Assembly (NCBI GenBank): GCA_903868795.1 | Contig: CAIPWR010000128.1 | Location: forward strand, 5,953 to 69,952 | DNA from: an uncultured Spartobacteria bacterium | GTDB lineage: Bacteria > Verrucomicrobiota > Verrucomicrobiia > Chthoniobacterales > UBA6821 | DNA: 64,000 nt | Direction: 5' to 3' | In this document: in pieces, positions 6,405 through 43,691 of the stretch | How positions within the stretch are numbered: the first letter of the stretch is position 1 | Layout of the letters: every line of letters begins with the position of its first letter | Notes under the pieces: generated by a model | Told to the model about the DNA's origin: nothing | Database searches by the model: none | Seen by the model: the letters and a program-made list of their open reading frames with translations, nothing else | Made by a program: the position numbers and the translations under genes

Positions 6405-7112
6405 ATGAGCGATTTAGACCCTAAAGTTAAAATCTCATGCATCGTTGATGAAACCATCCGAGGAAGGCGTTCTGTGCGGGCCTTCTTACCGACGCCTGTT
6501 CCCAAGGAGACCATTCTGGAGATTCTCGATGTTGCCGCTCGAGCCCCCTCCGGAACGAATACCCAACCGTGGCAGACCATCGTCGTCACGGGTGAGAAAA
6601 AGGAAGCTCTCTCCAAGGAGCTCATCGAAACAGCACTCGATCCCGTCCGAGATGCGGAGCACACACAGGAATACTCCTACTACCCTGACAAATGGGTGCC
6701 TCCCTACATCGATCGGCGTCGCAAGGTTGGCTATGATCTCGATGGAATTCTCGGGATTGCCAAGGGAGAGAGGGAGCGGATGGAGCAGCAGTTTGCCCGC
6801 AACTACACCTTCTTCGATGCGCCGGTCGGCCTCTTCTTCACCATCGACCGGATTATGGGACAGGGAAGCTGGCTCGATTACGGAATGTTCCTTCAGAACG
6901 TCATGATCGCCGCGCGGGCCCGAGGTCTTGATACCTGCCCTCAGGCGGCTTTCTGCAAATACCACCGGATTATCGCTAGGCACCTGGAGATCCCAGGACA
7001 GCAGATGCTTGTCTGCGGAATGGCACTGGGATACGAGGATCCTGACAAAATCGAAAATACCCTCCGCACAGAGAGGGATCCTGCGTCCACATTTACGAAA
7101 TTTGTGGGGTAA
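6405..7112 (+). CDS. Nitroreductase family protein (FMN-dependent)
   Basis: 235 aa with the characteristic N-terminal blocks RRSVRAF and APSGTNTQPW, and a length typical of the family. Confidence 0.8.
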   Translation: MSDLDPKVKISCIVDETIRGRRSVRAFLPTPVPKETILEILDVAARAPSGTNTQPWQTIVVTGEKKEALSKELIETALDPVRDAEHTQEYSYYPDKWVPPYIDRRRKVGYDLDGILGIAKGERERMEQQFARNYTFFDAPVGLFFTIDRIMGQGSWLDYGMFLQNVMIAARARGLDTCPQAAFCKYHRIIARHLEIPGQQMLVCGMALGYEDPDKIENTLRTERDPASTFTKFVG

Positions 7113-7167: not shown

Positions 7168-10100
7168 TCAGGGAGTGAACAATTTGTTCATCACAACCCT
7201 AAATCGGTAATAGCAGTCCATGATCAACTGGGGAGAGTTGGCGGTCAGGGTATTTCCAAAGGCATCCTTAAGGCCCGCAAAATCAGGAAGCGTGGGATCC
7301 GCAGGGTCAATGTAACGCTCGATCATCGTTGACCCCCTCTGATCTCCTATGACCTTGTCAGTGGATTCATTCCACTTCTGCCAATCGGCGTTTGTCACTC
7401 TCCTGCTTGTAACCTGCTGGAGAACCTGAACTCGATAATGCACCGTGTAGGTGTTCGATTTTGTGGTCAGTCTGGGATAAATGTAGGAATAGGGGCGTTC
7501 CCTCAGATTATCTCCCGTCATTCCCTTGCGAGTCGTTCCGGGATTGCCATACCACCAAGCTTTAATATTCGCATTCGCGGAGTCCCAGGAAACGATTGAG
7601 TTGGTGTTAACCAGGGAATTTGTTCCTGTTGGTTGTTGTGCCGGGTAGAGCCAGAGAGAACAGATTTCGGATGGGGAGTGAAAGATATCCCCATTCGCAA
7701 ACCGCTGCTGAAATTGAAGCAATGTCTGATCGGGATGAATGGGGTAATGGAAGTAAAAGTTTCCCGAGTTCGACCCGAAGGCATTGTAACTCTGGGAACT
7801 CACCCTGGGGACCGTATCGCTGTAGTATTCAGAAGTAAAAAGTGAGTACTGATTGGTGCTGCGTAGCTTGTAATCGTACCCCCACTGATCATCGACAGCG
7901 GTAAGCATCACTGACTTCAGAACTCCACGTAATGCTGCGTCCCGATTGATATAGGAGAAGGGGGCGATCTGGTAATTCAAGTTAACCTTACCAGCCGTGG
8001 AGAACGGATCACTGATCGGATAGGGATCGACCACCGGCATCTGGAAGAAGTCGAGCAGCAGATGGTCGGGGAGAATGGTATTCGTAATCAAACTCCCGGC
8101 TTCATTGTATCCCGCCAATGCCGAACGTTGATCTCTCAGAGCGGAACTTAGGGACGCAGGATTCGCAGAATGCTGAAGGGTGAGCCAACTATTGGTCAGG
8201 ATGGCAGGGGAAGGAGTCGTCGTGGAGGAGAGATTGGCAAATCCAACGGGTAGTGAACCCATGATGACCGCGGAGGGTACCATCCTGTTCGGAGAGAACA
8301 TGTTGGTTCCGATCGGTTGGAGAGAGAGGGAAAAATAAGGGTTATTGTAATAGTTCGCGCTGTTGGTGGCACCATAACCCTCATCTACTTTTCCAATAAA
8401 GGGTCCGTCGGAAAAAAATCCGATCCCGTTGTCAAAATCCCCCCCGCGACTCCAAAGCCCGAAGAATGTGGAGTTTCCAAAGTTACAATCGGCGCTCGCA
8501 TAGGGCTGGGAAAACTCACCGTCATAACTGTAATAGAAAGGGCCTCCCCTGCCAGGTGTGTGGCCGAATAAGTTCGTTCCTACTCCCGCGACATTACCAA
8601 TCAGTGAATTAAAAGGCCCATTAGGGGAATATCCGTTCATGGCCGGCGGATAGAAGTAGGAGTTTCCACCAGTGGCACCTGACCAATTGGTACACTGCAG
8701 CGTCCCTAAAAAAGCGCCGTTCATTGGCAGAGAGCCGCTCCGCAGCGAGTGAGCACTTCGAATCATCGTGGGCCATCCGTTCACGGATACCTGCGTGGAA
8801 TTCCCATAGAGCGGGTTCGTCGTGAAGAATGTGGAGGGAACATTCGACAAACAGGCTATCATGCGTGGATCGCCGTAGGTCAGATCGACGGACTGAACGG
8901 TGTCGGCAGTGAGTCTATTGAGCCCGGCTAACGTCCAGGGATAGGAGGGATCCGAACTGTTGGTCTCGCTGGTTCCCATCTCAGTTGCTATGAGGTAACT
9001 CTGGATCGAATCGGAAATGGCTTCGGTCATCCGCGAGTGATTTTTGATCGAGAAAGGGGTGACCTGGGACGATGCCGGATTGGAGAGCATGGGGTCAGCC
9101 TTATTGAAGGTCAGCATCCAGGTGGAAACGATGTCCCCCGTATTGGTGTCGCCGACTAGCGCATTAGAACTTGCACCACTGCTACCTGTGTAGATTTTGG
9201 AGCTGATTGGAGGATAATTCTGAAAGAGAGTATTTACAGATCCGTATCCTGAGAGCATGTAGGCTACCGGCAGCTTCGGGGTCGGGAAGGTAGCATTCGG
9301 GAAGGCAATCGCAAGGGACTGTATGGCAGTTCCCCCCGGCCCATTGAGAATGTTTTGGATCGTTCCTCCCGTGAAAGAAAAGGTATTCGTAGATGCAATT
9401 AGGACATTCGTTGCAAACAGGGAATTGGTTTCCGCATTGAGTGAAAGCTGCATTCCCAAATCGTAAAGCCAGTAATTCATCAGGGATGAGGCGTTGCTTT
9501 GGAAAAGTAGCCCCGGAGCGGTTAACCCCGAAGGATTGGCAGGAAACTGCAGGGATGTGCCGTTGACCGCAAAGCTTGATAGACCCGTTGCCTGGAAACT
9601 CATCTTGGGCTTGAGTCCCACCTGTCCGGGCGCGACATCAACAAAATCGGGAACATAGAGCATTTCAACGCGGGTTTGATAGGGCTGTAGAAGCGCGGAG
9701 TCCTTGTAAAAAGGATTCGGGATGTCGAAAGCTCCAGCAGTAGCACCCGTGGGTCTCTGCACACTCAGAAAGCGAAGCCCTGAATGCGTGGCAATTCCGT
9801 TGGAAGCCCCCGGAGTCGTCGAAGTTGTGAAGCCACTTGCCGAGGTCAACGTGGCATTGGTGGCAAGAACAACTGGATTGGGAAACGATATGAGAGAGTT
9901 TGAAAAATAGTAAATATTCGGCTGTGCCGTTGTGAGGAATTGTCCCGAAGTCGAATCAATCGTTGGATAGGTTCTTGTAGGGGATGAACCGGGACTATTC
10001 GCCGCCGAAAGATCAAACAGCGGATAGAGTTGTGCAAAATCGGGAAGCGGATTTGTAAGAGATGTGGAGTAGGAATTGACACCTGCAAAAACCGGAACGG

Positions 10101-12294
10101 GAAAAGAGATAGGAAAACCAAGGATTGAAATGGTAACGGTAGTCGTGAGCTGGGGTACCAGATTACTTGCAGGAGGGCAGGTCCAGGGATGCATGGGATT
10201 TACCTTGGCAGTCGCAAGCCCCAGAAACTCAGTAATCACATCCGTCCAGGAAGTCATCGAACCATCCGAGGCACTCAGCAGTGTCGTCCCCGTGGAATCG
10301 TAAACCATAGGACGACCGTTGGTGTGCACCATAAGCGGTGGTTGATTCGCCGCACGGGCTATAAACCAGAGGGAGGCGCCTCTCATCGTGGGAAACCTTC
10401 CTATACCGCGTGTCACCTTTCCATCAGGATTGGTCACCACAATAGGAACCACCTGACCCGATCCGTTCGTCAGATTCGTACTGCTGCCGGTAATCGCCGG
10501 GGGTGTCGTGTAGGAATTTGAAAACGAAGCCGAGGTCATTGTCGCGACATTCGTGATCGTCGAGCTATCAACAAGATTGATGCAGGACCTGATGTAATCG
10601 AAGAGCAGGGTGCAAATCTGATCTCCTTGGAGGGAATTAGAGCCGCCAGACCATTTGCCAGACGAGGTAAAGGATCCGATAAAGCCGGGAATCTGCGTAT
10701 CGAAACTACGTCTCAGGTAGGAATAGAGAATCTGATTACGGCCCAACATATCATTAGTAGGGCTCGTCGCATCATACCTGGTGAAGTAATAGGCATTGGT
10801 CCCGAGCGTAGAGCAGAAAGCCAAGATCTGATCCGTCACTGTCCTGTTGGAAGCCGCAGGAGCAGCATAAGGATTGGCGACCATCTTCTGTCCAGCCGTA
10901 GGCACGGGCCATAGCGAGATCTTCGGTTTGTTAAGGGGATTGACCTCGGGAGCCCGGCTATCTGTCGTGAGGAAAAACCTCATGCGAGAGACATCACGGG
11001 CTTGAAAGTTCCCCAAGGGATTCACCAGGCGTGAGGGGGACGATTGATTTGTCGCGGCAAAGAAAAACTCATCCACCGAGGCGTAGAGGCGATTTGTCCC
11101 GAGTGAAGTGATCGGCCCATTGGTCGGCACACCGGAAACGGAGGTCAGAACACTTGCTGAACCGGCCTTTGAGCCACCCCAGGCGTATTTTGGGGAGATA
11201 TTGGAGAGCACCGTCTGGTAGTAGTTCGTTGCCAGGGATGAAATCACCGGTGTCATCGTTCCGCTGACCTCATTATAGGAGGAGACTTGCGTCGGCAGGG
11301 CCGAAAGTATCTGGCGTGGTGAGGAGAGCCCCAGATAGCTCCAGAGAACGGGACTGAGACTTGTGGAGGCAGGATGACCCGGGTAGCGGTTGAACTCATG
11401 GGCGGCCGGAGGAAAGAGTCCCATCGCAACATCCTGCGATGTTGAAAAACTTGGAGGCGCCCAGAAGGCCCCTTCACTCGCGGTATTCAGGTTCAACTTG
11501 CAGGTTTCGTCATCCGTCCAGTAGGCGATCCTGGCAACAATGGGGTTCGCCTTGGAGGGCTGCTTGGTCGCATTGTTAAAAGTAGCTGACGTCTTGCTAC
11601 TGGCATCGGGGGCAATAGCCGTTCCGTCTTTAAGAATATACAACCAAAGAACAGGCATAGCGGCTTGATTAGAAACCCCCGTGAGCAGGGGGGCATTGCT
11701 GATTGAAAAACCATCCACGAGCGCCGCTCCATTGGATATGTTGGTCATGTAGGGATCCAAGATCGGGTAATTGGTGTTTCCCCGCGAAATCACGGGTGCA
11801 TTGAGATCGGTGTACGCAGAGGGTGATGATGTCCACCCGCTCGCAGGCAGATCGGAACTCACGGACACAGTGCTTGTGAAGAGATCGTTGCTCGCACTGT
11901 AGAGCTTGTAGGCCAGATAGGGAGCGGCATTAGTGTCGAATGTCCGGATAAGACCTGGTTGGGACGCCCAGCAGAGGGGAATATTGGAATTCAACGAGCC
12001 ATCGGCATTGTGTGCCAAGCCAACTGTGGCATCCCGCAGTTGTGAAATAATGAGGTTGGCGACCGAATCGGCAAGATTGTGGGTCGTCATGGCGGTTGCC
12101 TCCGCCTTGGTACCGATCTGCTCGTTGGTGATGCTGGAGAAGAAGGCAACGATCAATCCGGTCACAATGACCAGAAACGCGAGAACGATCACAAGAGCAG
12201 AGCCCTGAAGCTCTCCCCTCGCACTCACTTCGCACGAGCACGTAATATTTTCTCTACCCTCGTGAGGATTAGAGAAATGTCGACACGCTTGCAT
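7168..12294 (-). CDS. Giant secreted/anchored protein with a GspK-like N-terminus; candidate 'Verru_Chthon cassette protein A'
   Basis: 1708-aa ORF with a single N-terminal hydrophobic helix (GSALVIVLAFLVIVTGLIVAFF) followed by an S/T/N/P/G-rich extracellular-type sequence. Two K(L/V)NLN motifs (KLNLNTASE and GKVNLNYQ) resemble the T2SS minor pseudopilin GspK. It lies directly downstream of two prepilin-type genes. The start is either ATG 12294 or an in-frame GTG at 12228. Confidence 0.6.
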   Translation of the reverse strand: MQACRHFSNPHEGRENITCSCEVSARGELQGSALVIVLAFLVIVTGLIVAFFSSITNEQIGTKAEATAMTTHNLADSVANLIISQLRDATVGLAHNADGSLNSNIPLCWASQPGLIRTFDTNAAPYLAYKLYSASNDLFTSTVSVSSDLPASGWTSSPSAYTDLNAPVISRGNTNYPILDPYMTNISNGAALVDGFSISNAPLLTGVSNQAAMPVLWLYILKDGTAIAPDASSKTSATFNNATKQPSKANPIVARIAYWTDDETCKLNLNTASEGAFWAPPSFSTSQDVAMGLFPPAAHEFNRYPGHPASTSLSPVLWSYLGLSSPRQILSALPTQVSSYNEVSGTMTPVISSLATNYYQTVLSNISPKYAWGGSKAGSASVLTSVSGVPTNGPITSLGTNRLYASVDEFFFAATNQSSPSRLVNPLGNFQARDVSRMRFFLTTDSRAPEVNPLNKPKISLWPVPTAGQKMVANPYAAPAASNRTVTDQILAFCSTLGTNAYYFTRYDATSPTNDMLGRNQILYSYLRRSFDTQIPGFIGSFTSSGKWSGGSNSLQGDQICTLLFDYIRSCINLVDSSTITNVATMTSASFSNSYTTPPAITGSSTNLTNGSGQVVPIVVTNPDGKVTRGIGRFPTMRGASLWFIARAANQPPLMVHTNGRPMVYDSTGTTLLSASDGSMTSWTDVITEFLGLATAKVNPMHPWTCPPASNLVPQLTTTVTISILGFPISFPVPVFAGVNSYSTSLTNPLPDFAQLYPLFDLSAANSPGSSPTRTYPTIDSTSGQFLTTAQPNIYYFSNSLISFPNPVVLATNATLTSASGFTTSTTPGASNGIATHSGLRFLSVQRPTGATAGAFDIPNPFYKDSALLQPYQTRVEMLYVPDFVDVAPGQVGLKPKMSFQATGLSSFAVNGTSLQFPANPSGLTAPGLLFQSNASSLMNYWLYDLGMQLSLNAETNSLFATNVLIASTNTFSFTGGTIQNILNGPGGTAIQSLAIAFPNATFPTPKLPVAYMLSGYGSVNTLFQNYPPISSKIYTGSSGASSNALVGDTNTGDIVSTWMLTFNKADPMLSNPASSQVTPFSIKNHSRMTEAISDSIQSYLIATEMGTSETNSSDPSYPWTLAGLNRLTADTVQSVDLTYGDPRMIACLSNVPSTFFTTNPLYGNSTQVSVNGWPTMIRSAHSLRSGSLPMNGAFLGTLQCTNWSGATGGNSYFYPPAMNGYSPNGPFNSLIGNVAGVGTNLFGHTPGRGGPFYYSYDGEFSQPYASADCNFGNSTFFGLWSRGGDFDNGIGFFSDGPFIGKVDEGYGATNSANYYNNPYFSLSLQPIGTNMFSPNRMVPSAVIMGSLPVGFANLSSTTTPSPAILTNSWLTLQHSANPASLSSALRDQRSALAGYNEAGSLITNTILPDHLLLDFFQMPVVDPYPISDPFSTAGKVNLNYQIAPFSYINRDAALRGVLKSVMLTAVDDQWGYDYKLRSTNQYSLFTSEYYSDTVPRVSSQSYNAFGSNSGNFYFHYPIHPDQTLLQFQQRFANGDIFHSPSEICSLWLYPAQQPTGTNSLVNTNSIVSWDSANANIKAWWYGNPGTTRKGMTGDNLRERPYSYIYPRLTTKSNTYTVHYRVQVLQQVTSRRVTNADWQKWNESTDKVIGDQRGSTMIERYIDPADPTLPDFAGLKDAFGNTLTANSPQLIMDCYYRFRVVMNKLFTP

Positions 12295-12410
12295 GGTGCA
12301 AGCTACTCGCGAGTTATGCTCAACTCAAGGCTTCCAAGAGATCTTGAAGCCTCAAATAAGATTCTCAGAACCTTCGATAATCCCGGCGCAAGAGACCATT
12401 CCGACCTGGT

Positions 12411-13508
12411 CTAGTTCGTCTGCGAGCCGCTCCATTTTGCCCCCTTGATCATCACATCCGTCGTGAAGATCCGGTAATTGATTTGCTTGGCTGCGAGAAT
12501 ACTTCCCAAGTTGGTGAGATCAGTGGGAAGATTTGAGGCATATTGAAAAAGATTTGAACTTGAATACATGTTCATCAAATTTGAATACGTGTTCGCAAAA
12601 CGCACTGCAGAGGTCTCATCCACAGCAACCATCGTTACCTGAATAACAGGAGGGAGCTGATTGTGGGTATTCAGATTGGCATCAATTGGACTATTCGAAT
12701 TCAGATTTGTGGAAGAGTCATAAGTGAAATTGGGAGCAAGGCTATAGTTTGTGTAGCCATTTGGAGCCAAAGAATTCGTTACATTGTAATCAGCAGGCGA
12801 GAGCTTCGGCAGGATAATTAAAGCGATCACGTTCTCAGCGAGCACATGGGCAGGACGGTTTGTGGTAAGGATCATCGAATTGGAAATCCAGTCTATGTTG
12901 GTGTAGGAGCGATTTCCCGAGGTATAATTGTACACGGAAAGGTTCTCCGTCGGTTCCATCAACTCCATGAGGCGATAGCGGTATCTTGGATTATAGCCCT
13001 TTGCCAAAACAGCTGCCGGAACACCGTTTGTATCACTCGCGTATTCCAAAAAATAACCCCAGGTATTGAGCGCATTCTGGAGAATCGAGTTACTTGAATT
13101 AGTCGTGAACCCATTGGGTGCCTGAAAAAAGACCGACATGGTCGGTACCTTAGAAAGTGAGGCAAGGCTAGATAAAATCGTTTTTGTTGGACCGCTAAGA
13201 AAACGCAGTTCAGATTGCCTTTGATAGGCCGTGGGAACACCATTGGAATTAGTGACATAGTCGAGATAGGTATTGAGCGTTGCCTGACTGAGTCTGCGGG
13301 TAATGGTGTCAAATGCATCGCGTGCACCTCGAAACTCTTCAATTTTTCCACTGGTCGACTTCCAGGTCTTGGAAGTCTGATTCACCATGGTGAGAAGAAG
13401 GACGACAAGTAGGGCTAAGATCGCAGAAGCCACCAGCAACTCAGCCACAGTGAAAGCATCCTGATCCTTTCGGATATTTCCTTTGTTTCTCAAAGATTCG
13501 AAAATCAT
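12411..13508 (-). CDS. Prepilin-type N-terminal cleavage/methylation domain protein; candidate 'Verru_Chthon cassette protein C'
   Basis: 365 aa. An 18-aa basic leader is followed by DA|FTVAELLVASAILALLVVLL, which has Phe+1, Glu+5 and a hydrophobic helix. Position -1 is Ala rather than the usual Gly. Its ATG overlaps the upstream stop (ATGA at 13505-13508). Confidence 0.65.
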   Translation of the reverse strand: MIFESLRNKGNIRKDQDAFTVAELLVASAILALLVVLLLTMVNQTSKTWKSTSGKIEEFRGARDAFDTITRRLSQATLNTYLDYVTNSNGVPTAYQRQSELRFLSGPTKTILSSLASLSKVPTMSVFFQAPNGFTTNSSNSILQNALNTWGYFLEYASDTNGVPAAVLAKGYNPRYRYRLMELMEPTENLSVYNYTSGNRSYTNIDWISNSMILTTNRPAHVLAENVIALIILPKLSPADYNVTNSLAPNGYTNYSLAPNFTYDSSTNLNSNSPIDANLNTHNQLPPVIQVTMVAVDETSAVRFANTYSNLMNMYSSSNLFQYASNLPTDLTNLGSILAAKQINYRIFTTDVMIKGAKWSGSQTN

Positions 13509-14116
13509 TTATTTCGCCCGATCAGGGTGGTAAAAGTCTGCACGTTAGGATTAGCGCCATTGGTGGCATTGGTACCTAATCCATTTCCAGGATTATTGGC
13601 CACCATAACGGTGACAGTTGCCAGATTTGTCGATGTGTTCCCGAGAAAGCTGGTTGAATTACCTCCTCCACTATTGGTGCCTATTTGAACGCTGACCCAA
13701 TAAATACAGTTCACAGCGTTGGAATTCGTCAACTCCGTTCCCTGCTCATCGAAAAATCTGGTGCTATTCGTCAGATCTTTCCAATCAGCAATCTGCATAT
13801 CATTGAAGACTCTCTGTGCGATCTGAGAACCAACAGCGGTGTTCATAGTGCTTTTGAATGTCTTCAGTCCACTGGGAAGAAGCCCGAGAAGTGCAACCAA
13901 CGCAAAGGCCGCCACACCGACTGCCATCACAACTTCAACCAGACTAAATCCGGCTAGACGCGAACGTGTTCTTATACGGCATAGAGTCCGCGTAAAAGAT
14001 TCCGAGGAATCAATGGAGGGTAGTGTCTGCACGTCGGGTAGATTCGTAATAATCTGAGATAAACTAACCTGTGGAGCCCCATTATCAAGAGAAGAGCGGG
14101 GTGAGAAGCCGTACAA
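13505..14116 (-). CDS. Prepilin-type N-terminal cleavage/methylation domain protein; candidate 'Verru_Chthon cassette protein B'
   Basis: It has the canonical class-III signal LAG|FSLVEVVMAVGVAAFALVALLGLLP with Glu+5. The tracked start is a TTG at 14116, giving an unusually long 55-aa leader. An in-frame GTG at 14032 would give a 27-aa leader. Confidence 0.65.
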   Translation of the reverse strand: MYGFSPRSSLDNGAPQVSLSQIITNLPDVQTLPSIDSSESFTRTLCRIRTRSRLAGFSLVEVVMAVGVAAFALVALLGLLPSGLKTFKSTMNTAVGSQIAQRVFNDMQIADWKDLTNSTRFFDEQGTELTNSNAVNCIYWVSVQIGTNSGGGNSTSFLGNTSTNLATVTVMVANNPGNGLGTNATNGANPNVQTFTTLIGRNK

Positions 14117-14119
14117 AGT

Positions 14120-15994
14120 TTAAAGCGCTTTGGATTTCTGTTTTTTACCCGATGAAGATTGGGGAGCGGGAGGCGTTACCGAATCCAAGAGCTTCCGTTC
14201 TTCGGGCCTGAGATTGGCCATGTTTAACGAAGCGAGCTGTGCCTCGGAACTTTCTCCCTCCCCATTCGCCCTGAGAACAGCACCCCTGATGACCCTCCAT
14301 TGGTCTGGCGCTAAGGTCCAGTCAATGATCTTCCCCTCATAAAGAGCAAGCGCTGCTTTGGAATCTCCTCCCCTGAGTTTTGCCAAGGCAGCAACGCTGA
14401 TCCGGGACAGGTTATCCGGTTGATCCTCTAGAAGAATTGCGGCCATGGCAGATGCTTCTAAGACATCATCGTTTGCAAGCAACCTCAGGTAGGCCAGATC
14501 TCCCTTCGCATCAGCCATGCTTGGAGCGGCAGCCACGAGTTCAACGTACATCGGGATAAGTTCAACAGCAGGAGCATTTCGTGGCTGACAACGGATGAGG
14601 CCTATTAATCCTGGAATTCTGGTCGCACCGTCACGATCAGCCATTTCACGGTAAGCTCTCGCTGCGCGATCAGAAGCTCCGATTTGTTCCTCATAGCCCG
14701 CCACATAAGCTAGGGTTTCAGGTTTTTCAAGATGCAGTGCTCCGCCAACATTTCTCCATTCATCCTCGGCTCGGTTCTGATCACCGGACATCAAAGCGAC
14801 ACGGGCCAGAAAGAGATGCCTCACAGCATCAGGAATTCCGGCTCCTGCCGGTGAATCAAGCGTCTTGGATACCTCCTTCCAGTTCCCAAAAGCGGTCTCG
14901 GCATCCAGAGTAATGAGAAGCCAATCGGTATCCTTCAAGGGCCGCTCCGGACCCGCAACCTCAAGGACCTCCTCATGGAATCCCCGAGCATTAAGCCACC
15001 TAGCAAATTCAAGCGCCTCTATCCGTGAGGCAAGACGAAATTTTGATTTTAATCGCTTAACAATTTCCCCTTTTCCCGAAGGGTTCTGAAGGAATTCCAT
15101 GTCGGCTGCGGTCAAGGAATCCATCGCCGTGTGACCTGGCAAGGTTTCAAGAGATTTTATCAGAGCGGTGATTTCTTCGGGAGAGAGAAGGCCCGTTGAT
15201 CCCTGAGGAGGAGACAACACGATCCTTGCAAGCAGGCGCCATGCAGCCAACGAGATCTTCCCATGTTTTTTTAGAACCTGCTGAAGTAGTGACACCGCAT
15301 TTTTCGACGCGTCGGCATTCTTGCTGGCAAGAAGATACACGGCTGCCTGAATTCGAAGCCTGGAAGTGTTGTCCTGAGAAAAAGAGACCTCATCGGAAAG
15401 ACATGTCTCGGCAGCTTTGGGAAAATCGCCGTGCTGGGCCAGCAAGGATGCCACGGCAAGGGTGCGTAGGAGGAGTTGCTGCTCACTCAGTTTTGCAGGC
15501 AGGGCCTTGATCGCTTCTCTGACAATATCAGGGTGAGCAGCAGCAATCTCCAACTCTGCAATCCCGAGGAGTTCGTCGGGACTTGATGATCCGGATCGCA
15601 TCCGCTCAAGAAGTTTTTTCATGGAGGGCTGATCGCCGGAGCGAGCATTGTAGAGTTCCACGGAGTGCTGGACCCTTGGACTTCCGGGAGAAAGAGCCAG
15701 TGCCTGCTTGAGGAGAGAAAGAGCCTTTGTCGGATCTCCCGTTGAAAACGAAAGTTCGGCATTTCCCACCAGAATACCCGAACGCCACTCCTTGGCTGCG
15801 CGGTAAAAGGGCGGCAACAGGATCAGCAGAAGGATCACACCGCCCCCAATGAGCAACCTGCGGAGGGTTTGCGGATAAGTGATTCCCGTGATTGACGGAT
15901 GTGCTGGGGAGCGGCTCTCGTCAGAATAATCGGGAAGTTCCGAATGATTGTTAGGGGCTCCTTGAGCCTGTTGCGGATCGGTCGTTTCACTCAT
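14120..15994 (-). CDS. Membrane-anchored helical-repeat (TPR-like) protein
   Basis: 624 aa with one N-terminal TM segment (LLIGGGVILLLILLPPF), followed by an Ala/Leu-rich sequence with TPR-like periodicity. It sits 1 nt after the exosortase stop and 3 nt before the next gene. Confidence 0.45.
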   Translation of the reverse strand: MSETTDPQQAQGAPNNHSELPDYSDESRSPAHPSITGITYPQTLRRLLIGGGVILLLILLPPFYRAAKEWRSGILVGNAELSFSTGDPTKALSLLKQALALSPGSPRVQHSVELYNARSGDQPSMKKLLERMRSGSSSPDELLGIAELEIAAAHPDIVREAIKALPAKLSEQQLLLRTLAVASLLAQHGDFPKAAETCLSDEVSFSQDNTSRLRIQAAVYLLASKNADASKNAVSLLQQVLKKHGKISLAAWRLLARIVLSPPQGSTGLLSPEEITALIKSLETLPGHTAMDSLTAADMEFLQNPSGKGEIVKRLKSKFRLASRIEALEFARWLNARGFHEEVLEVAGPERPLKDTDWLLITLDAETAFGNWKEVSKTLDSPAGAGIPDAVRHLFLARVALMSGDQNRAEDEWRNVGGALHLEKPETLAYVAGYEEQIGASDRAARAYREMADRDGATRIPGLIGLIRCQPRNAPAVELIPMYVELVAAAPSMADAKGDLAYLRLLANDDVLEASAMAAILLEDQPDNLSRISVAALAKLRGGDSKAALALYEGKIIDWTLAPDQWRVIRGAVLRANGEGESSEAQLASLNMANLRPEERKLLDSVTPPAPQSSSGKKQKSKAL

Positions 15995-15995
15995 A

Positions 15996-17609
15996 TTACC
16001 GGGAGGGTGTTTGCAAAAATGGGGCCGGGTTATCTTTTAAGGAATCTGCAAGATAACGTGCCAGCGCAGCACGCGCCTCAGATTCATCGTGAAGATTCCA
16101 GAGCGCGATCTCGACCATCCTCTGTCCCCTATTCCGTTTTCCGAACCTCACGTTTGAAATTCTAGCCATGGGCGACTGATCGGTAACGGGATGGTTTTCC
16201 AGTGCATCCGTCCCCTGCTCCATGATTGAGTGAAAGACATATACTGGCTGGCCATTCTGGGTGAAGAGCCACGCATGAAGGCGCGGCCCTCCGGAAGATC
16301 CGCTCTCAAAATCTGCAAGCGGTCGCTCCATATGCATTCCCATGCTCGCAAGGCAAACCTCCGGACTATGCATCTGGACGGACTGTACGGCTGTCCTGCC
16401 CGCCGGCCACTGAAAGAAGAACACCTGCCCCATCTCGCCACGGGCATTGATCCATTTTTCTGAAAATCCCTCCGGATGGAAAAGCATGCGAAGCGTTCCC
16501 TCTGCTACGGGAACGCTCGCGACTCCAGCGACACCATTTCTCGGAGCGATCTTCCAGGCCCAGTAATCTTCTCTGGGTAGATCATGCATACCGAACCAGA
16601 TCTCAGTCAGCACCAGAGAGCCTGTGAGAATCAGCAGGGCAACAATCCACAATACCATATCACCAAGCGAAGAGCTGGCGGGCACTCTACCACCAGAGAG
16701 GTGCGTCCCTGCTTTGGCCTCACGAAGGTCAACCTGAGATCTCAAGGAACGCCAGTGGAACGCACAGGCAATAACGAGCAGAAAAGTCATCAGGAGAATA
16801 CAAAGTCCGGCGGAATCGTGCCATTCCGGAACTGCTGCCATGCCTTGCCGGGAAGCGACAATTCCGAGGAAGGAGCTTCTTAAAATATTTCCTGCGAGCG
16901 CTGCCAGAAGCGCCACGACAAGCAGCATGAAACGCCTTGGAATCGTTAACCGAAAGATCTCACCGAAAAACAGTGCCACCATCAGACCGCTCTGCAGGGA
17001 ACGGATGCCACTACATGCCTCCTCGATTCCCAGAATGCCCGACGAGGTGAGGATCAGATTTCCTTGCCGCAGCGCCTCATAACCGCACCAGTGCAGGATT
17101 TCGACGGTCGTGGCAGCATTCCACGACATCAGGAGGGACATCAGGGATTGCTCAAAATTACGGGGCCACGGAACAGCAATCAAAAAAAACACCACGGGAA
17201 AGGCGAAGTGCCTTAACCACGGGATCCCACCCTCCTGGGCAATCAGGCCAAGGCTGATGATAATCGTTGCTATCGCTGCCACTCCTCCAAGTGGACGCCA
17301 ATCGGGATTGGCCTCGGCTACCGGAATAACAGCCGCCAAGAGTGCGGACGCAATAACGATGCCCACCCCAGCTAGGATCTTCACCCATTGTGCGGGGACT
17401 TCTGGCGCGGGCCTGTCTTCCCAGCGCTTCAACATCAGCCCGATCATAAGCAGCGGCACCAGGAGGCCATAGCTGTACTGAGGATCAATCCTCCAGTCGT
17501 TCCACACTATTCGGATCACCGCAAACCACGCCACTACTGCCAGAAAAGGGGCCAACAAAAGACGCACACGGAAAGCGTCGTTGTTCAAGATCCTTGTAGC
17601 ATCACCCAT
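15996..17609 (-). CDS. Exosortase (EpsH family) fused to a C-terminal EpsI-like domain
   Basis: 537 aa and polytopic. It has the conserved exosortase catalytic-Cys block EEACSGIRSLQSG, followed by more TM helices and a ~200-aa soluble C-terminal extension of the size and position of EpsI. Confidence 0.75.
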   Translation of the reverse strand: MGDATRILNNDAFRVRLLLAPFLAVVAWFAVIRIVWNDWRIDPQYSYGLLVPLLMIGLMLKRWEDRPAPEVPAQWVKILAGVGIVIASALLAAVIPVAEANPDWRPLGGVAAIATIIISLGLIAQEGGIPWLRHFAFPVVFFLIAVPWPRNFEQSLMSLLMSWNAATTVEILHWCGYEALRQGNLILTSSGILGIEEACSGIRSLQSGLMVALFFGEIFRLTIPRRFMLLVVALLAALAGNILRSSFLGIVASRQGMAAVPEWHDSAGLCILLMTFLLVIACAFHWRSLRSQVDLREAKAGTHLSGGRVPASSSLGDMVLWIVALLILTGSLVLTEIWFGMHDLPREDYWAWKIAPRNGVAGVASVPVAEGTLRMLFHPEGFSEKWINARGEMGQVFFFQWPAGRTAVQSVQMHSPEVCLASMGMHMERPLADFESGSSGGPRLHAWLFTQNGQPVYVFHSIMEQGTDALENHPVTDQSPMARISNVRFGKRNRGQRMVEIALWNLHDESEARAALARYLADSLKDNPAPFLQTPSR

Positions 17610-17672: not shown

Positions 17673-19238
17673 CTAACGCCCTTTGCCAAAGAGTACCACA
17701 TGGAGCGTCTTTAAGAGAACCTCGGCATCCAGCCTCATCGAAAAGTTCCGTATATAGTAGAGGTCATAGGAGAACTTTTGGAGCGTATCATCAAGCGACG
17801 CCCCATAGGGGTAATGTACTTGAGCCCATCCAGTGATGCCAGGGCGGACCAGATGTCGGAAGTGATAATGTGGGATCTGCTTTTCGTAATCACTCACAAG
17901 ACGCATCCACTCGGCCCTGGGACCGATCATGCTCATATCCCCGCGCAGCACATTCCATAGCTGGGGAAGTTCATCCAGACGTGTCTTCCGGAGAAAATTT
18001 CCAACCTTGGAAACCCGGCTATCACCTTCCCTCGTATAGCCGTCGCCCCGGTCGCTGCCGACACGCATGGTACGGAATTTATAGAGAGTGAAGGGTTTCC
18101 CGTGAACTCCCGCCCTCGGCTGGGAATAGATGATGGGAAATCCATCAAGGATCATGATGGCAGCCGCCGTTACCAGCATAATCGGAGCCACTAGGACGAG
18201 AAGGAACAGAACGAATACGAAATCAAGAAGCCTCTTCAATGCAGAATAGACCGAATGCTGAACCAGGACGAATTCCGTCTCGAGCGGCCAAGCAGGTCCC
18301 AGAAGCTGAAGTGGTATCCTGACCCAATAGTTTTCGTAAAAAGATTCCATCGTATAAACTGGCAGTTCCTCGAAATGGATGACTGAAAGGCGTCTCACGA
18401 CCTCCGGATCCAACTGATCCAGATCGGCAGCAACCACGATGGCCTCATATCCCAATGCGTTCTCCTGACCGAGATGAGGGAGCAGATGAGCCGCCTCCAG
18501 GATGGGGGCCGAGGTTCCCTTTCCGGCAAACGATTTGAAGCAAAGTTTCTTATCGGCCGCCACATAGCGAACCCCCTGATGCTGGCCGCTGGCTTCATAA
18601 TCGCTGTGGAAAACAGGCCCGAGGCAATCATCGACGATCACAAGAAATTTCCCCTCGGCGCGGAAGGTTGCGGCCCAGAACCAAAAAGACCGTCTGTACA
18701 AAAGCGAGAACGCCGCAAAAAGCACAAACGTCGTTGTGAAGATCGCCCTGCTCGAAGTCGGGTGAGGCCCAAAGGAAGCAACGACATAGAGAAGCAGGGC
18801 CGCCGCCGCCAACGCACAAGCACAGGCTATCAGATGCTCGCTTGCATACCGCAGGGAGGCAAAATCCATCCGCACCCTGTACCCCCCGACCAAGGCCAAC
18901 GACACCATGAGGATCACCATCGGCAGAAGGATGGCAGAGAGAGTGATATTATTGTATCCGCCGGTTACTTGGGAGAGAGCTAAATAAATGATCCCCCATA
19001 GCAAAATATCGAAGAGTGCGCAGAGTGGTGCGAAGAGCATCTGCCTCTTGGATCTCTTGGATCTCTTGGACTCACCGGACTGACCATTTGATTCCCTAGC
19101 GGAGGGATCGATAGTCATTGGATCGGCAGATTCAGGAGTCAACTCAGGGGATACTGGGATCATGAGTGTGATGGTGCCAATGACATCTGCATCAGTAGAA
19201 TCAGAATTTCTTCCGATAGCAAGAACGGGGCGGGTCAA
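17673..19238 (-). CDS. Exopolysaccharide-priming polyprenyl glycosylphosphotransferase (bacterial sugar transferase, WbaP/EpsB-like)
   Basis: The C-terminal sugar-transferase domain is present (PIIYSQPRAGVHGKPFTLYKFRTMR ... RLDELPQLWNVLRGDMSMIGPRAEW), preceded by several TM helices. The tracked start is a TTG at 19238. An ATG at 19040 (MLFAPL...), just before the first TM helix, is an alternative. Confidence 0.85.
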   Translation of the reverse strand: MTRPVLAIGRNSDSTDADVIGTITLMIPVSPELTPESADPMTIDPSARESNGQSGESKRSKRSKRQMLFAPLCALFDILLWGIIYLALSQVTGGYNNITLSAILLPMVILMVSLALVGGYRVRMDFASLRYASEHLIACACALAAAALLLYVVASFGPHPTSSRAIFTTTFVLFAAFSLLYRRSFWFWAATFRAEGKFLVIVDDCLGPVFHSDYEASGQHQGVRYVAADKKLCFKSFAGKGTSAPILEAAHLLPHLGQENALGYEAIVVAADLDQLDPEVVRRLSVIHFEELPVYTMESFYENYWVRIPLQLLGPAWPLETEFVLVQHSVYSALKRLLDFVFVLFLLVLVAPIMLVTAAAIMILDGFPIIYSQPRAGVHGKPFTLYKFRTMRVGSDRGDGYTREGDSRVSKVGNFLRKTRLDELPQLWNVLRGDMSMIGPRAEWMRLVSDYEKQIPHYHFRHLVRPGITGWAQVHYPYGASLDDTLQKFSYDLYYIRNFSMRLDAEVLLKTLHVVLFGKGR

Positions 19239-31542: not shown

Positions 31543-33376
31543 TTTTGAGAAGAGAGAGATCCGGCTTCACCCTATTGGTCGACCATTTCGATGAGTTCCA
31601 ATAAAAGCTCAGCACCTCGCCGTTTTTGACTGAAACAGGCTTTCCATGCTTTCTGCTGGATGGGTAAAGGGTATAGCCGAGACCCAAATGATTGGCGGAA
31701 TTATCAATCACAAGCTGCGCTCCATAAGGAATCGACGAAGGAGAGGAGTCATCCAGTACATAGACGGAATTAGGGCGGGTGTAGACCGTCTGATGCAATG
31801 GGCCAGAGGCTACCGAAATTACGTTGGTCTTCCCGACTCCATCATCATCCTGGAAGGGATGATACTCATTATTCGTGAGGATCAGGGCATACTGAGGGGA
31901 ATACCCACCGAGAAACATTGTGTTTGAAGCGAGGCATTTGTTCCCTGATACCACCACCCTTGAAGCAGAGGAATTCGTGTAGCCTCCAATAAAAACCTGA
32001 AGCGCCGGACCAGAGCTTGTGTTGCTGACTACACAGACGGCCTCCGATCTGTTTTGCCCACTTCCTTCGAGTTGGATGACATTGCGCGGGCCCGCGAAGG
32101 TATTCCCTGCAATGACGATGTTGCTGTTCCAGAAACTTCCCTGATAGCCCGCACAGCCGATGGCGATCGCGTTATTGAACTGTGCGCAGTGAAACTGATT
32201 GTTACGGATGATGAGATTATCTGCAGGGCAGGTCATGATCCCATTGCCACCCTGCGCCATGAAGGTGAAGTCGTTGTTCTGGATATAATAGGGAGGATTC
32301 GTTCCCGTCCCCCCATTGATGGCCATGCCCCCGCTTGTTAGGGCTGTAGCCGTGTTGGATTCAAACAAACAAGGATGCTTGTGATAGGCCTGATAAAACT
32401 CACTGATGAGGAAGAGATTCGAGAACAAGCATCCCGTAATCTCGTGCGAAAAGCTAAAGTTGAATCCCGAGGCATTGCCATCGGTAAACTGACAATGCTG
32501 CATATTGATGAATCCATCCCAGTTCGCGCAGACGCTTTTGACCTCCTCCCCTCTCCAGTGAGTGAATCGGACGTTGGAGAAAGTCTTGCTTGAGTTCAGC
32601 GGTGGTGGTCCCATGTCGACCACAGCGGAGTGGATGAGATCCCACCCCTCCCCATCCACAGCACTGGCTGGGAAACCATGATTGGTCGTATTCCCCTGAG
32701 TGACTCCCCCATCGAGTGTTAGGTCATTGAAGACAACTGGGTAATCGTTGGAAACCGGCCCCCTGAAAACAAAGAGAAATCCCCGATAAGCGCGATTGCC
32801 TTGACCGAGCTGCCAGGCCCCGCATCCCGTCAGGATCGTTCGGTCCATGCCTTCTCCCACGAGTTGAAAACCACCCCGATGAATCACCACCGCACCCTCG
32901 GCAGGCTCCAGATTCGATTGGAAATGGGCGGGAGCCACCAGGAGGTAATTGCCGGCCGGTACCTTGATGAGGTTATTACTCCCCCGGCAGTCATTCAGCA
33001 GTCTGGTGAAGATCGGCGCATTATCGGTGCCGTACTCCCCGCTGGCAGAGGGCAGCGAAGCCCCAGCCGCAGGTCTGATCCTGATGGAATGGTCATCAAC
33101 GACCCCGATGATCGTCGCCACGAGATCCTGGTGATGGCCGCCGGAGGTAGGAGTCCCTGCGTCATGAAGTTCAATGACTTTACCGAGATCGGATTTCGAG
33201 AATGAGGCTGACTCCGATGAGATGACCTCGGATCCTTCAACGGTCTTTGCCTTCAGCGGAGCGAGATCTCCCTTGGCCCCGCGATCCAGCACGTTGATGG
33301 AATTCCCATGGGCCACTCCTTGGGCCAGAAACTGAGCCAGAGCGATCCCGAAAATCAAGGGAAAGGAGGTTTTCAT
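31529..33376 (-). CDS. Secreted right-handed parallel beta-helix protein (pectate-lyase superfamily / GH28- or GH55-related)
   Basis: It has a signal peptide from the ATG at 33376 (MKTSFPLIFGIALAQFLAQGVAHG) and an N-terminal INVLDRGAKGD block like the Pectate_lyase_3 domain. A long series of N/G/I-rich beta-helix-like repeats follows. Confidence 0.55.
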   Translation of the reverse strand: MKTSFPLIFGIALAQFLAQGVAHGNSINVLDRGAKGDLAPLKAKTVEGSEVISSESASFSKSDLGKVIELHDAGTPTSGGHHQDLVATIIGVVDDHSIRIRPAAGASLPSASGEYGTDNAPIFTRLLNDCRGSNNLIKVPAGNYLLVAPAHFQSNLEPAEGAVVIHRGGFQLVGEGMDRTILTGCGAWQLGQGNRAYRGFLFVFRGPVSNDYPVVFNDLTLDGGVTQGNTTNHGFPASAVDGEGWDLIHSAVVDMGPPPLNSSKTFSNVRFTHWRGEEVKSVCANWDGFINMQHCQFTDGNASGFNFSFSHEITGCLFSNLFLISEFYQAYHKHPCLFESNTATALTSGGMAINGGTGTNPPYYIQNNDFTFMAQGGNGIMTCPADNLIIRNNQFHCAQFNNAIAIGCAGYQGSFWNSNIVIAGNTFAGPRNVIQLEGSGQNRSEAVCVVSNTSSGPALQVFIGGYTNSSASRVVVSGNKCLASNTMFLGGYSPQYALILTNNEYHPFQDDDGVGKTNVISVASGPLHQTVYTRPNSVYVLDDSSPSSIPYGAQLVIDNSANHLGLGYTLYPSSRKHGKPVSVKNGEVLSFYWNSSKWSTNRVKPDLSLLKNVSL

Positions 33377-35189: not shown

Positions 35190-36442
35190 ACCGCAAGGGT
35201 ACCGGTTTTCTCTTCGTCCAACAGACTCCTGTAGAGTTCCATATAACGAAATGCCATATTTGAAATGTCAAATTGACTACGAACCCAGGAAGCTCCCATC
35301 ATTCCCATAGCTAGCAACTCACCACTGGATTTACCTTCGATGATACATTCAGAAATAACTTCGACTTCGTAATAAGGAACCATAACTCCTGTCCTGCCCT
35401 GGAGAATGGTTTCGGGAAGGCCGCCTACTGAGAAACCGTAGACTGGGGTGCCGCACGCCTGAGCCTCCACTGATACTTGACCGAATGACTCCATCTGTGA
35501 GCAAATCACCAAGGCATCCATAGCAGAGTAGGAAAGATTCATCATTTCCGAATCATTGATCGTTCCTAGATAGCTGCATGGTACTGCCTGCTCTGTCATT
35601 ACATCAACAATACCCTCACCCACGACTAAGGCTTGGGTTTGAGGAATTCTTTTTTTGACCTTCGCAGCCACATCAAAGAAACGATTTATTCCTTTATTTC
35701 TGTCTGTAAGTGATGCTGCGACAAATCCAAGAGTGAATGCATCATCACTAATACCGAGGCGCATTTTCGCCTCGGATTTTGAAATTACTTGGAATTCAGA
35801 AAAATCAAATCCAGGGAGAATAGTAACATGTTTTGCATCCTTGGTGAGTTGCGACCTCTCCACTAAAGAAGCCGTAGAGATGCTGTTTGAAACAAAGGCG
35901 ATTTTCCTCCCACTCAACGAGGCACGACGTCTTTTTAATTCCTGCCTTGCGAACAGGTGATTTGCAGGAAATTTAAGAAGGGGACATAAATTGCAGTTTT
36001 TTCCAAACTGATCACATCCAAAATCAGTATAACATCCCCCGGCTAAGGCACTCATATCGTGAACTGTCCAAACAATTGGCGTTTTATTAGGCAAGGATGA
36101 AACAAAGCTTGGTAAATCCAGCCAATGAGAGATCCAGTGCAGATGAATAATATCTGCATTATTTTTAGGGACTGGAGTCTTATAGGGAAGATGCATCCTA
36201 GAATAAGAGGAGGCCGCTGAAAGACGGTTCATCCTGTTCTCCACGGAAAAAGCAGCCCGCTCAACAAGGCGGCGGTATCTGTTTTGCGAATATTCGAGGC
36301 AACGAATACCATCCCCACCCTTAGCCAAATTGCGTGTAAAAACCTCGCTTTCAATTCCATCTTTAAGCAACGCTCTATGAAGACGAATCATGAGCATCGC
36401 GGATCCACCTTGGGTGAAGGTATTAAAGTGGGTAACTTTCAC
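35186..36442 (-). CDS. GT4 glycosyltransferase
   Basis: 418 aa with the C-terminal block SQMESFGQVSVEAQACGTPVYGFSVGGLPE. It is visibly more AT-rich than the flanking genes. Confidence 0.7.
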   Translation of the reverse strand: MKVTHFNTFTQGGSAMLMIRLHRALLKDGIESEVFTRNLAKGGDGIRCLEYSQNRYRRLVERAAFSVENRMNRLSAASSYSRMHLPYKTPVPKNNADIIHLHWISHWLDLPSFVSSLPNKTPIVWTVHDMSALAGGCYTDFGCDQFGKNCNLCPLLKFPANHLFARQELKRRRASLSGRKIAFVSNSISTASLVERSQLTKDAKHVTILPGFDFSEFQVISKSEAKMRLGISDDAFTLGFVAASLTDRNKGINRFFDVAAKVKKRIPQTQALVVGEGIVDVMTEQAVPCSYLGTINDSEMMNLSYSAMDALVICSQMESFGQVSVEAQACGTPVYGFSVGGLPETILQGRTGVMVPYYEVEVISECIIEGKSSGELLAMGMMGASWVRSQFDISNMAFRYMELYRSLLDEEKTGTLAV

Positions 36443-36462
36443 TTTACTAAATATTTTTTAGG

Positions 36463-37575
36463 CTAAGAACTTGTGATTGTTTGTAAAATTATCTCGCCCA
36501 AATTAGAAGGAACCCATCCAGCAGCACGAACATATGCTGACTTTCCCATATTTTCCCATTTATCACGGGAATTCCAGGCGCGCTCAATCGTTTCATGTAT
36601 GATTTCTGGACTTTCTCCAAGGCTTACATATCCATCCAAACCATCTCTTAAGAGCTCGTGGTTTCCCCCTGTTCTAGTGATAATTCCAGGACGACCGCAA
36701 AACATTGATTCAATCAAAGCCAATGCAAGCCCTTCTTGCCGAGAGTTGAGAATGTGTATGTGGTGGTTAGTCCAGATTTTTGTAAAATCCCTCTCGAACC
36801 CAGCAAGATAAACATGTTTTTGCAATCCATAATAGCGAATCAAATCCTGCAAGTACGAAACATCTGGTCCACTCCCAAAAAGATTTAACTGCCAATTACG
36901 CTTTTTCCATTCAGTTGTTGACATCGCTTCTAAAGTTCGATCTTGGCACTTACTATTTATTTCATACCTGCCAACTGTTGCGAAAAAGATTTTCCCATCT
37001 ACTGATTCAGGCCAATCAAGAGGATTATCAAGTCTTTTTCTTATAGGATTCGGAATGATTACTTTATTAGGTAGAGCGGCGGCTAACTGACGCTCTAGTA
37101 ATGTTGCATTGGATTGTGAGACGCAAATCATCCGTAGAGCATTTGTATAGAGATTTTTTACTCTCGCACGCATAATGCTACCACTTATATATCCTTCTTC
37201 ATTCCCTTGAATAATATAAACCTTGCGACTTGAAGATCCCTCAAGAAACGACATTAGATCCGCATTTCTAAACATATCTGGCGCTCCACCCGAAACGCAT
37301 AGAATATCAGCATTCCAATTTTTTATTTTATCAAACCGTGAGTATATACCACTTCCCGCAAACCTCCTCTTCAGCCAATTAAGTTGTTGATAGGGAAATA
37401 TTATACCGCCCAATTTTTTGAATTCATCGATCTCTGCTGATTCTGTTATCCCTTTTTGTGCGCAAACAGCAACAGAATGACCATTTTTTAAGGCTTCTTC
37501 AGCAAACACCCTCCACATTTCTTCGCTTCCCGCCCAAGAATAACCGCTAACAACTGAAATAATTCCTACTTTCAT
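36463..37575 (-). CDS. GT4-like glycosyltransferase
   Basis: It has the C-terminal block NSRQEGLALALIESMFCGRPGIITRTGG. I chose the ATG at 37575 (MKVGIISVV) to avoid overlap with the upstream gene. Hand counts on two 60-nt lines give about 38-43% GC. Confidence 0.65.
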   Translation of the reverse strand: MKVGIISVVSGYSWAGSEEMWRVFAEEALKNGHSVAVCAQKGITESAEIDEFKKLGGIIFPYQQLNWLKRRFAGSGIYSRFDKIKNWNADILCVSGGAPDMFRNADLMSFLEGSSSRKVYIIQGNEEGYISGSIMRARVKNLYTNALRMICVSQSNATLLERQLAAALPNKVIIPNPIRKRLDNPLDWPESVDGKIFFATVGRYEINSKCQDRTLEAMSTTEWKKRNWQLNLFGSGPDVSYLQDLIRYYGLQKHVYLAGFERDFTKIWTNHHIHILNSRQEGLALALIESMFCGRPGIITRTGGNHELLRDGLDGYVSLGESPEIIHETIERAWNSRDKWENMGKSAYVRAAGWVPSNLGEIILQTITSS

Positions 37576-37582
37576 ATTAAGG

Positions 37583-43684: not shown

Positions 43685-43691
43685 GGCAAGC

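Follow-up and report, generated by a model that had tools for sequence, protein, structure and literature searches.

An exosortase-TPR gene pair and a pseudopilin-like cassette without protein D are neighbours at the end of an exopolysaccharide locus in Chthoniobacterales

We have analyzed a 64-kb stretch of DNA from an uncultured Spartobacteria bacterium (contig CAIPWR010000128.1 of assembly GCA_903868795.1). This whole stretch will be called the window, and all coordinates are window positions. The region between 7168 and 17609 contains five co-directional open reading frames (ORFs), all on the minus strand, as a first-pass annotation made from the sequence alone had described. In the direction of reading they code for an exosortase (ORF 1, 15996–17609, 537 aa), a helical-repeat protein similar to tetratricopeptide repeat (TPR) proteins (ORF 2, 14120–15994, 624 aa) and three proteins of the Verru_Chthon cassette: B, C and A. 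The longest ORF for protein B extends over 13505–14116 (203 aa), and we have revised it to 13505–14032 (175 aa, with a GTG start at 14032). Protein C is found at 12411–13508 (365 aa) and protein A at 7168–12294 (1708 aa). These parts had been assigned correctly to known families, of which the cassette families are functionally uncharacterised.

Most of the junctions between these genes are as first described: the 1-nt gap at 15995 between the exosortase and TPR genes, the ATGA overlap of B and C at 13505–13508 and the 116-nt gap between C and A at 12295–12410 are all present. A junction of only 3 nt between the TPR gene and B (14117–14119) had also been proposed, but it is an artefact of choosing the longest ORF, which needs a TTG start at 14116. 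We have discarded it because two stop codons break the N-terminal extension of B upstream of the GTG in the closest relative (locus L001), and because the GTG start is conserved in relatives: it is found 26–28 codons ahead of Gly-1 of B in 10 of 13 loci, and in the window it lies at 14032. With this start, the real gap between the TPR gene and B is about 87 nt (14033–14119). The leader of B then has about 27 residues (13951–14032) and that of A about 30, while the leaders of type IV pilins are typically much shorter.

The product of ORF 1 is an exosortase, as had been recognized from its EEACSGIRS Cys block. Its multi-pass membrane domain matches PF09721 with an E-value of 4.9e-42 (144.5 bits, threshold 25.7) and the exosortase/archaeosortase signature TIGR04178 with 55.8 bits (cut-off 23), and the cysteine of the block, C199, is invariant in 12 homologues. 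Among the named exosortase types it stays under every cut-off (XrtA 101.5 bits for a cut-off of 208, XrtD 103 for 400, the others lower). The subfamily to which it belongs has no name, consists of proteins of about 535 aa and is common in Chthoniobacterales; 513 homologues were found, most of them of 500–545 aa. The exosortase ends in an extracytoplasmic domain of roughly 200 aa, which the first-pass annotation took to be like EpsI. In the C-terminal 200–250 residues the signal is present but faint: PF11984 (EpsI/DUF3485) gives 13.4–14.9 bits for a threshold of 26.1, with E-values of 0.022–0.062. The same model matches 3 of the 12 homologues, with a best E-value of 0.0041, and all of these matches are also under the 26.1-bit cut-off. 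Judging from these alignments, a distant kinship of the C-terminal domain to EpsI is possible.

ORF 2 codes for a membrane-anchored TPR-like protein. The helical repeats first noted in it correspond to TPR matches, all of them sub-threshold. This gene is found directly 3' of the exosortase in nearly all the orthologous loci which reach far enough downstream. A TPR-like protein of about 620 aa, which matches no curated family, is a near-constant partner of this exosortase subfamily in about 50 loci (L001–L053), and it may be an undescribed exosortase accessory protein. Most orthologous loci which reach far enough upstream have a conserved neighbour directly 5' of the exosortase, a gene for a priming sugar transferase (Bac_transf, PF02397 E-value 6.8e-63; 17673–19238 on the minus strand in the window). 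It is the last biosynthetic gene of an exopolysaccharide (EPS) locus which extends upstream of the exosortase, on the minus strand, over approximately 17.7–55.2 kb. This locus contains several glycosyltransferases of families GT4 and GT2, a DUF218 protein, a hexapeptide transferase, acyltransferases, a PglK-like ABC exporter, a UDP-glucose dehydrogenase, a Wzc-like tyrosine kinase, a Wza-like export protein and a Wzy_C protein. Its GC content falls to 0.43 at 36001–38000 and to 0.47 at 42001–44000, where EPS glycosyltransferase and acyltransferase genes are found; low-GC stretches are common in variable polysaccharide loci. No PEP-CTERM tail is found in any window ORF, including A, B and C. 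On the other side of the region, downstream of A, there is a convergent nitroreductase gene, followed by GH1 genes.

The Verru_Chthon family names which the first-pass annotation used are right. All three cassette proteins exceed the curated cut-offs of their families: A reaches 786.9 bits with TIGR02600 (cut-off 332.3, residues 31–1708 covered), B 81 with TIGR02598 (cut-off 51.4) and C 317.7 with TIGR02599 (cut-off 256.5). B and C adjoin A in the order B-C-A, as in other cassettes. The class III (prepilin) signals with Phe+1 and Glu+5 reported in two ORFs are also present, LAG|FSLVEV in B and QDA|FTVAEL in C, and these two small proteins are the sole window ORFs with a credible signal of this type near the N-terminus. 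A third ORF (32723–33202, plus strand) was picked up by a loose motif scan and has been discounted. C matches the Pfam N_methyl model with 17.6 bits, under the threshold of 21.2. B is a small pilin-like protein in the GspI/PilV position, with weak XpsI and PilV matches over its N-terminal helix.

Protein C can be assigned further, as a minor pseudopilin of the GspJ/PilW kind. Its score against the GspJ model TIGR01711 (18.3 bits) does not reach the cut-off of 64.85. The AlphaFold 2 (AF2) model of C, calculated from a 44-sequence alignment, has a predicted local distance difference test (pLDDT) score of 79.6 and shows a long N-terminal helix and two beta sheets. When this model is compared with the PDB by Foldseek, the sole meaningful matches are proteins of the GspJ class (XcpW/EpsJ), with probabilities of 0.97–1.00 for the top six and a target-normalised template modelling score of about 0.5. 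The best match is 9a1f_S, chain S of the XcpGHIJK model (E-value 3.6e-4, probability 1.00), and Vibrio EpsJ (2ret/3cfi) is matched with probabilities of 0.97–0.99 in the best five chains. We have also compared the profiles of B, C and A with the single E. coli sequences of GspG to GspK using hhalign. Only the N-terminal helices align, which gives weak support to C as J and A as K, and B is not discriminated. For C against GspJ, the hhalign probability is 94% over the N-terminal 50 columns.

A fourth protein of these cassettes, D (TIGR02596), was not found in the window or its clade by a scan for the pilin-signal motif and inspection of the loci of relatives. It is present in more distant cassettes: L081, L084, L086, L087, L095, L100, L107 and L109, where it may be placed ahead of B, between C and A, or after A. 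In relatives, D matches GspH models, which makes the full cassette an H/I/J/K-like set. In two loci, L081 (989–9926) and L112 (1–6817), the cassette is expanded: a 1285-aa protein with no family match and several small genes lie between the TPR gene and B-C-D-A, and one of these small genes is weakly C-, B- and HpsC-like.

Protein A is in the GspK/PilX position. The length of 1708 aa and the motifs CKLNLNTA and GKVNLN are as first reported. Its N-terminus, RGELQG|SALVIVL, forms a helix of the GspK type in which Glu5 is missing. The window's A is part of a long subfamily of 1650–1870 aa, while the typical length in the family is 1200–1450 aa; the whole family forms 1540 clusters at 50% identity (E-values up to 1e-3). 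Two modules, residues ~30–650 and ~1280–1708, are conserved, and the middle part is variable. The AF2 model of residues 1–660 (pLDDT 72.5) shows a 59-residue helix (32–90) followed by beta strands and sheet. The first-pass annotation considered A as GspK-like, which holds for the N-terminal helix and the NLN motifs, but no T2SSK domain and no PDB sequence or fold is matched. Pfam finds no T2SSK (PF03934) in residues 1–465 at E-values up to 10, and no domain at all in the complete protein. The family profile, which also covers the C-terminal module, has no match among PDB sequences at E-values up to 10, and the search of the 1–660 model against the PDB by Foldseek gives nothing better than an E-value of 1.8, GspK and PilY1 included. 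With hhalign, residues 27–50 of A align to residues 3–26 of E. coli GspK (24 columns, probability 27–38%). A is GspK-like solely in its position and its N-terminal helix.

In several relatives (L080–L085, L088, L090 and L092), a gene for a sodium:solute symporter (SSF) recurs next to the orthologues of A, on their downstream side; some of these have faint NANM/Kelch matches. The SSF gene is convergent in the window clade, and in L082 and L085 it runs in the same direction as genes for an amidohydrolase and a GHMP kinase. From the window itself, the SSF-GDSL-esterase genes have been lost.

In order to see how far the association of exosortase and cassette extends, we have compared both sides. 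On the exosortase side, 79 loci were obtained with an exosortase alignment as query and one genome per GTDB species. The module formed by sugar transferase, exosortase and TPR protein is conserved in roughly 50 loci. In this survey, B-C-A follows the TPR gene solely in L001 and L002, the two closest relatives, and the cassette is absent from 35 of the 48 orthologous exosortase-TPR loci which could be judged. On the cassette side, exosortases were sought by tblastn, an iterated exosortase hidden Markov model and a regular expression for the Cys motif; the last two methods added L109 alone. When protein C is at least 70% identical to that of the window, an exosortase or TPR gene is found upstream in 12/12 judgeable loci; at 55–70% identity it is found in 2/4. 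Below 55%, where only cassettes with at least 4.5 kb of upstream flank were counted, this number falls to 1/22, and 21 of the 22 have no exosortase. These distant cassettes adjoin giant PATR-repeat proteins, carbohydrate-binding module (CBM) proteins or sugar-uptake genes. In a neighbour-joining tree based on the exosortase and TPR proteins, the cassette-bearing loci form essentially one clade, with two exceptions: the cassette-less L003 is nested in the clade, and the cassette-bearing L084 is the sister of the cassette-less L013. The adjacency is not unique to the source genome, it is shared within a clade of relatives. Judging from these gene comparisons, it is most likely an inherited local gene order in one narrow clade of freshwater Chthoniobacterales. 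The meaningful tie to the exosortase and EPS machinery which had been proposed is not supported: it would concern essentially one clade, and most orthologous exosortase loci and almost every other cassette lack it.

The flanking genes point in the same direction. In L004, L010 and L013 the TPR gene is followed directly by the nitroreductase and GH1 genes, and in L047 by the SSF-GDSL-esterase genes. In the window clade, the cassette sits between the TPR gene and those downstream genes. The convergent nitroreductase and GH1 genes are syntenic as widely as the cassette or more, therefore the adjacency which has been kept needs no functional explanation, since unrelated neighbours behave in the same way. 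Members of the same cassette subclade as the window may also be found with no exosortase, as in L095 and L110. L095 (9402–12676) contains B-C-D, without A and without exosortase, between ribF and the nitroreductase gene; its ribF is part of a nusA-infB-truB-ribF housekeeping cluster. The fact that B-C-D is kept without A means that the small pilins can persist without the giant protein, so they have a role of their own. A different arrangement is found in L109 (1939–9220). Here a divergent 591-aa exosortase (21% identity) and a 636-aa TPR protein, a distant homologue of ORF 2, are followed by three small secreted PEP-CTERM proteins (VPEPS, hydrophobic stretch, RRR), then by holA on the opposite strand, and then by B-C-A-D. 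The local GC content at 12001–14000, which covers B and C, is 0.47, compared with ~0.53 elsewhere. We have rejected a horizontally acquired island as a main explanation: the cassette occupies the same chromosomal position across the clade, and its flanks are syntenic.

The 87-nt gap between the TPR gene and B contains a promoter-like block on the minus strand (14061–14094), formed by CTTGATAA at 14089–14082, a 16-nt spacer and TAGTTT at 14066–14061. An alignment of 10 loci gives TTGATA-N16-TAGTTT as the pattern for the whole clade. The block lies approximately 57 nt ahead of the GTG of B; it is found 138 nt ahead of the Gly-1 codon in 8 loci and 105–137 nt ahead of it in 7 others. It is limited to the cassette clade in which C is at least ~70% identical, and all of these loci are adjacent to an exosortase wherever the flank can be judged. 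A second putative promoter-like block, TTGAGT-N17-TAGCTT in the alignment of 10 loci, is found before A (12300–12328, minus strand). It ends 5 nt ahead of the ATG of A, whose position is conserved; if it is a promoter, it would imply a near-leaderless mRNA. Both blocks share the pattern (C)TTGA..-N16/17-TAG.TT.

A consensus scan of the window finds fewer promoter-like sites than in shuffled sequences, and terminator-like sites at chance level. One of the latter, a hairpin with a U-tract on the minus strand at 7060–7077, is placed about 90 nt past the stop codon of A, within the 3' end of the convergent nitroreductase gene. The hairpin appears in the minimum free energy fold, and the z-score of its region is not significant; the same is true of the z-scores of RNA folding in the three gap and tail regions as a whole. 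In what concerns an internal signal between the exosortase and the pilin genes, the consensus scan shows no terminator-like site, and a conserved promoter-like block is present. The proposal of a single operon from the exosortase to A finds no support here, given a gap of about 87 nt between the TPR gene and B which contains a block conserved in the clade.

All the genes of the locus are under purifying selection. The ratio of nonsynonymous to synonymous substitutions (dN/dS) is lowest in A, about 0.06, so that A is the most constrained gene; it is 0.12–0.18 for B, and 0.08–0.18 for B and C together, in comparisons with four relatives. The value for the sugar transferase (SugT) against L090 has been left out, since it is an alignment artefact. 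A is 83–95% identical in relatives where the exosortase is 61–86% identical. When only L001, L002 and L090 are considered, A has 90–95% amino acid identity and its neighbours 71–90%. Synonymous divergence (dS) is uneven along the locus: it is 0.42–0.55 for A, compared with L001 and L002, and 0.56–2.4 for its neighbours, and for B it is 0.36 with L002 and 0.82 with L001. This suggests recombination or codon constraint.

Taken together, the region probably consists of two functionally separate modules placed side by side. One would be the conserved 3' end of the EPS operon, with the priming sugar transferase, the exosortase and its membrane TPR-like partner. The other would be a D-less B-C-A cassette of type IV pilin-like proteins. 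A prepilin peptidase would process B, C and A, whose N-terminal helices would assemble into a tip or priming complex. The filament concerned would resemble that of type II secretion or a type IV pilus, with the genes for its ATPase, platform, major pilin and peptidase outside the region. A would form the distal cap and show about 1600 residues, including the variable middle part, at the filament tip, probably as an adhesin or a ligand binder. A different copy of the cassette would presumably supply the GspH-like adaptor D. Transcription of B-C-A probably starts from a promoter of its own in the gap between the TPR gene and B, with possible read-through from the EPS operon. To consider the cassette as a GspH/I/J/K-like set of minor pseudopilins is reasonable, based on its composition, on its signals and on the predicted fold of C. 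The minor-pseudopilin tip which the first-pass annotation had proposed agrees with these features, but not with A beyond its N-terminal helix.

Several points weigh against such a separation, and they lend themselves to a clade-specific coupling in which B-C-A would be co-transcribed with the EPS and exosortase genes, and the pseudopilus would export, extrude or anchor the polysaccharide or exosortase-processed proteins. All five genes are on the same strand with short gaps, no terminator-like site is found between them, and both promoter-like blocks fall under the threshold of the consensus promoter scan. The adjacency is stable within the clade down to 51–60% exosortase identity, with an exosortase or TPR gene upstream of all 12 judgeable cassettes in the closest class. 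In L109, some 3.6 kb separate a cassette of the window's subclade from a different exosortase-TPR pair, which is accompanied by three PEP-CTERM genes, and this could hint at a recurrent association of exosortase and cassette. Such a role would parallel that of the pseudopilins of the cyanobacterial hps locus, and the pilin-like gene of L081 which weakly matches NF038304 (HpsC) adds a named precedent for pseudopilins in EPS loci. Nevertheless, we consider this coupling unlikely. Of 48 orthologous exosortase-TPR loci, 35 are without the cassette, among them L003 inside the clade itself, 21 of 22 distant cassettes have no exosortase, and neither do L095 and L110. Unrelated nitroreductase and GH1 genes are syntenic at least as widely, an opposite-strand holA parts the two modules in L109, a conserved promoter-like block precedes B, and no cassette protein has a PEP-CTERM tail. 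The stability of the adjacency and the pairing in L109 of the same subclade with another exosortase and TPR protein do hint at a bolder suggestion, that a pseudopilus primed by B-C-A forms a functional component of the EPS pathway associated with the exosortase in this clade of Chthoniobacterales. Its task might be to push the polymer out or to display surface proteins processed by the exosortase. We find this suggestion rather doubtful.

Other difficulties of the two-module explanation concern the filament itself. The globular part of A has no detectable homology to GspK. The first-pass annotation noted that the core genes of type II secretion systems (T2SS) and type IV pili are missing from the window, which is correct: none of 56 ORFs, which include every large non-overlapping window ORF, has a Pfam or NCBIfam match to GspD, GspE, GspF or GspO. 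This check of the filament machinery covered one 64-kb window alone. A could then be a stand-alone giant protein, at the surface or spanning the periplasm, held by a pilin-like helix, with B and C as accessory membrane partners and no filament or secretion machine. The lack of any match of the 1–660 model and the family profile to solved structures, GspK and PilY1 included, would fit such a protein, and so would the absence of Pfam domains in A, of the GspH-like D in the clade and of machinery genes in the window. On the other hand, the class III signals of B and C are canonical and include Glu5, C is predicted to fold like GspJ, full cassettes elsewhere are H/I/J/K-like in composition, the helix of A lacks Glu5 exactly like that of tip subunits, and the small pilins kept in L095 have a role of their own. 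A giant protein of this type is improbable in our opinion. Finally, the absence of D in the window and its close relatives, together with its presence in more distant cassettes and the loss of A in L095, might be taken as the decay of a remnant with no current function. We give hardly any credit to this idea: the B, C and A ORFs are all intact, A is better conserved than the exosortase, and the purifying selection on A, B and C (dN/dS of 0.06 for A and 0.08–0.18 for B and C) means that the D-less cassette is not a remnant.

An operon joining an exosortase to pseudopilins would, if true, be a new kind of envelope machine, and a pseudopilus working in the EPS pathway would couple type IV filament parts with exosortase sorting in a way not described before. 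The comparative data mostly correspond to an inherited gene order at the point where a variable EPS locus ends, and the operon claim should not be propagated. What is useful is the uncharacterised cassette as a GspH/I/J/K-like set, whose member in the K position is giant and strongly constrained, in a family of at least 1540 clusters at 50% identity, and also the conserved exosortase-TPR pair which closes the EPS locus in Chthoniobacterales. Both are targets for the study of surface filament assembly and surface protein sorting in Verrucomicrobia.

We have compared the region with the systems it most resembles. The Verru_Chthon cassette (TIGR02600, TIGR02598, TIGR02599 and TIGR02596) is a set of named families with no assigned function. 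The window agrees with it in the scores of A, B and C and in the order B-C-A, and differs in the absence of the GspH-like D and in the long subfamily to which A belongs. In the literature we have searched, no paper was found on these cassettes or on a link between exosortases and pseudopilins, and nothing relevant on hormogonium polysaccharide with pseudopilins or on Verrucomicrobia with minor pilins. In PEP-CTERM/exosortase systems (XrtA/EpsH with EpsI), as here, an exosortase with a Cys block ends an EPS locus with Wza-like, Wzc-like and GT4 genes. In the window, however, the exosortase is under all the named Xrt cut-offs, the EpsI-like part belongs to the exosortase itself and is hardly detectable, there is no gene for a PEP-CTERM substrate, and the partner is a 624-aa TPR-like membrane protein. 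The cyanobacterial hps (hormogonium polysaccharide) locus encodes the pseudopilins HpsB-D. It shares with our region (through NF038304, EPS_HpsC) the presence of pseudopilin genes in or beside a polysaccharide synthesis locus, but no match of the window's B, C or A to the Hps models is found at an E-value of 0.01, and the linkage described here is restricted to a clade.

There is a likeness in composition to the GspH-I-J-K tip of the T2SS, as known from GspIJK of enterotoxigenic E. coli (ETEC), EpsI-EpsJ of Vibrio and XcpUVWX of Pseudomonas. The full cassette has four parts with the same roles: the fold of C corresponds to GspJ, D matches GspH, the helix of A is of the GspK type RGxAL(V/L)IVL without Glu5, and B and C have the G/A|F...E5 pattern. 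The differences are in size and in gene context. A is about five times as large as GspK and has no T2SSK domain or fold, C is about twice as large as GspJ, the cassettes are apart from any gspC-O operon, and the scores against the gspI and gspJ models are far under their cut-offs. The type IVa minor pilins FimU-PilV-PilW-PilX with PilY1 form stand-alone clusters, with four minor pilins plus a very large tip protein, and Myxococcus xanthus has multiple alternative sets of minor pilins and PilY1. They differ from the cassette in that PilY1 is a separate Sec-exported protein, while here the pilin-type helix is on the large protein A itself. The resemblance lies in the clustering of minor pilins with a huge tip protein, and B has a weak PilV match. 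By analogy with these sets, several alternative combinations of minor pilins and tip protein in one genome could serve a single machine.

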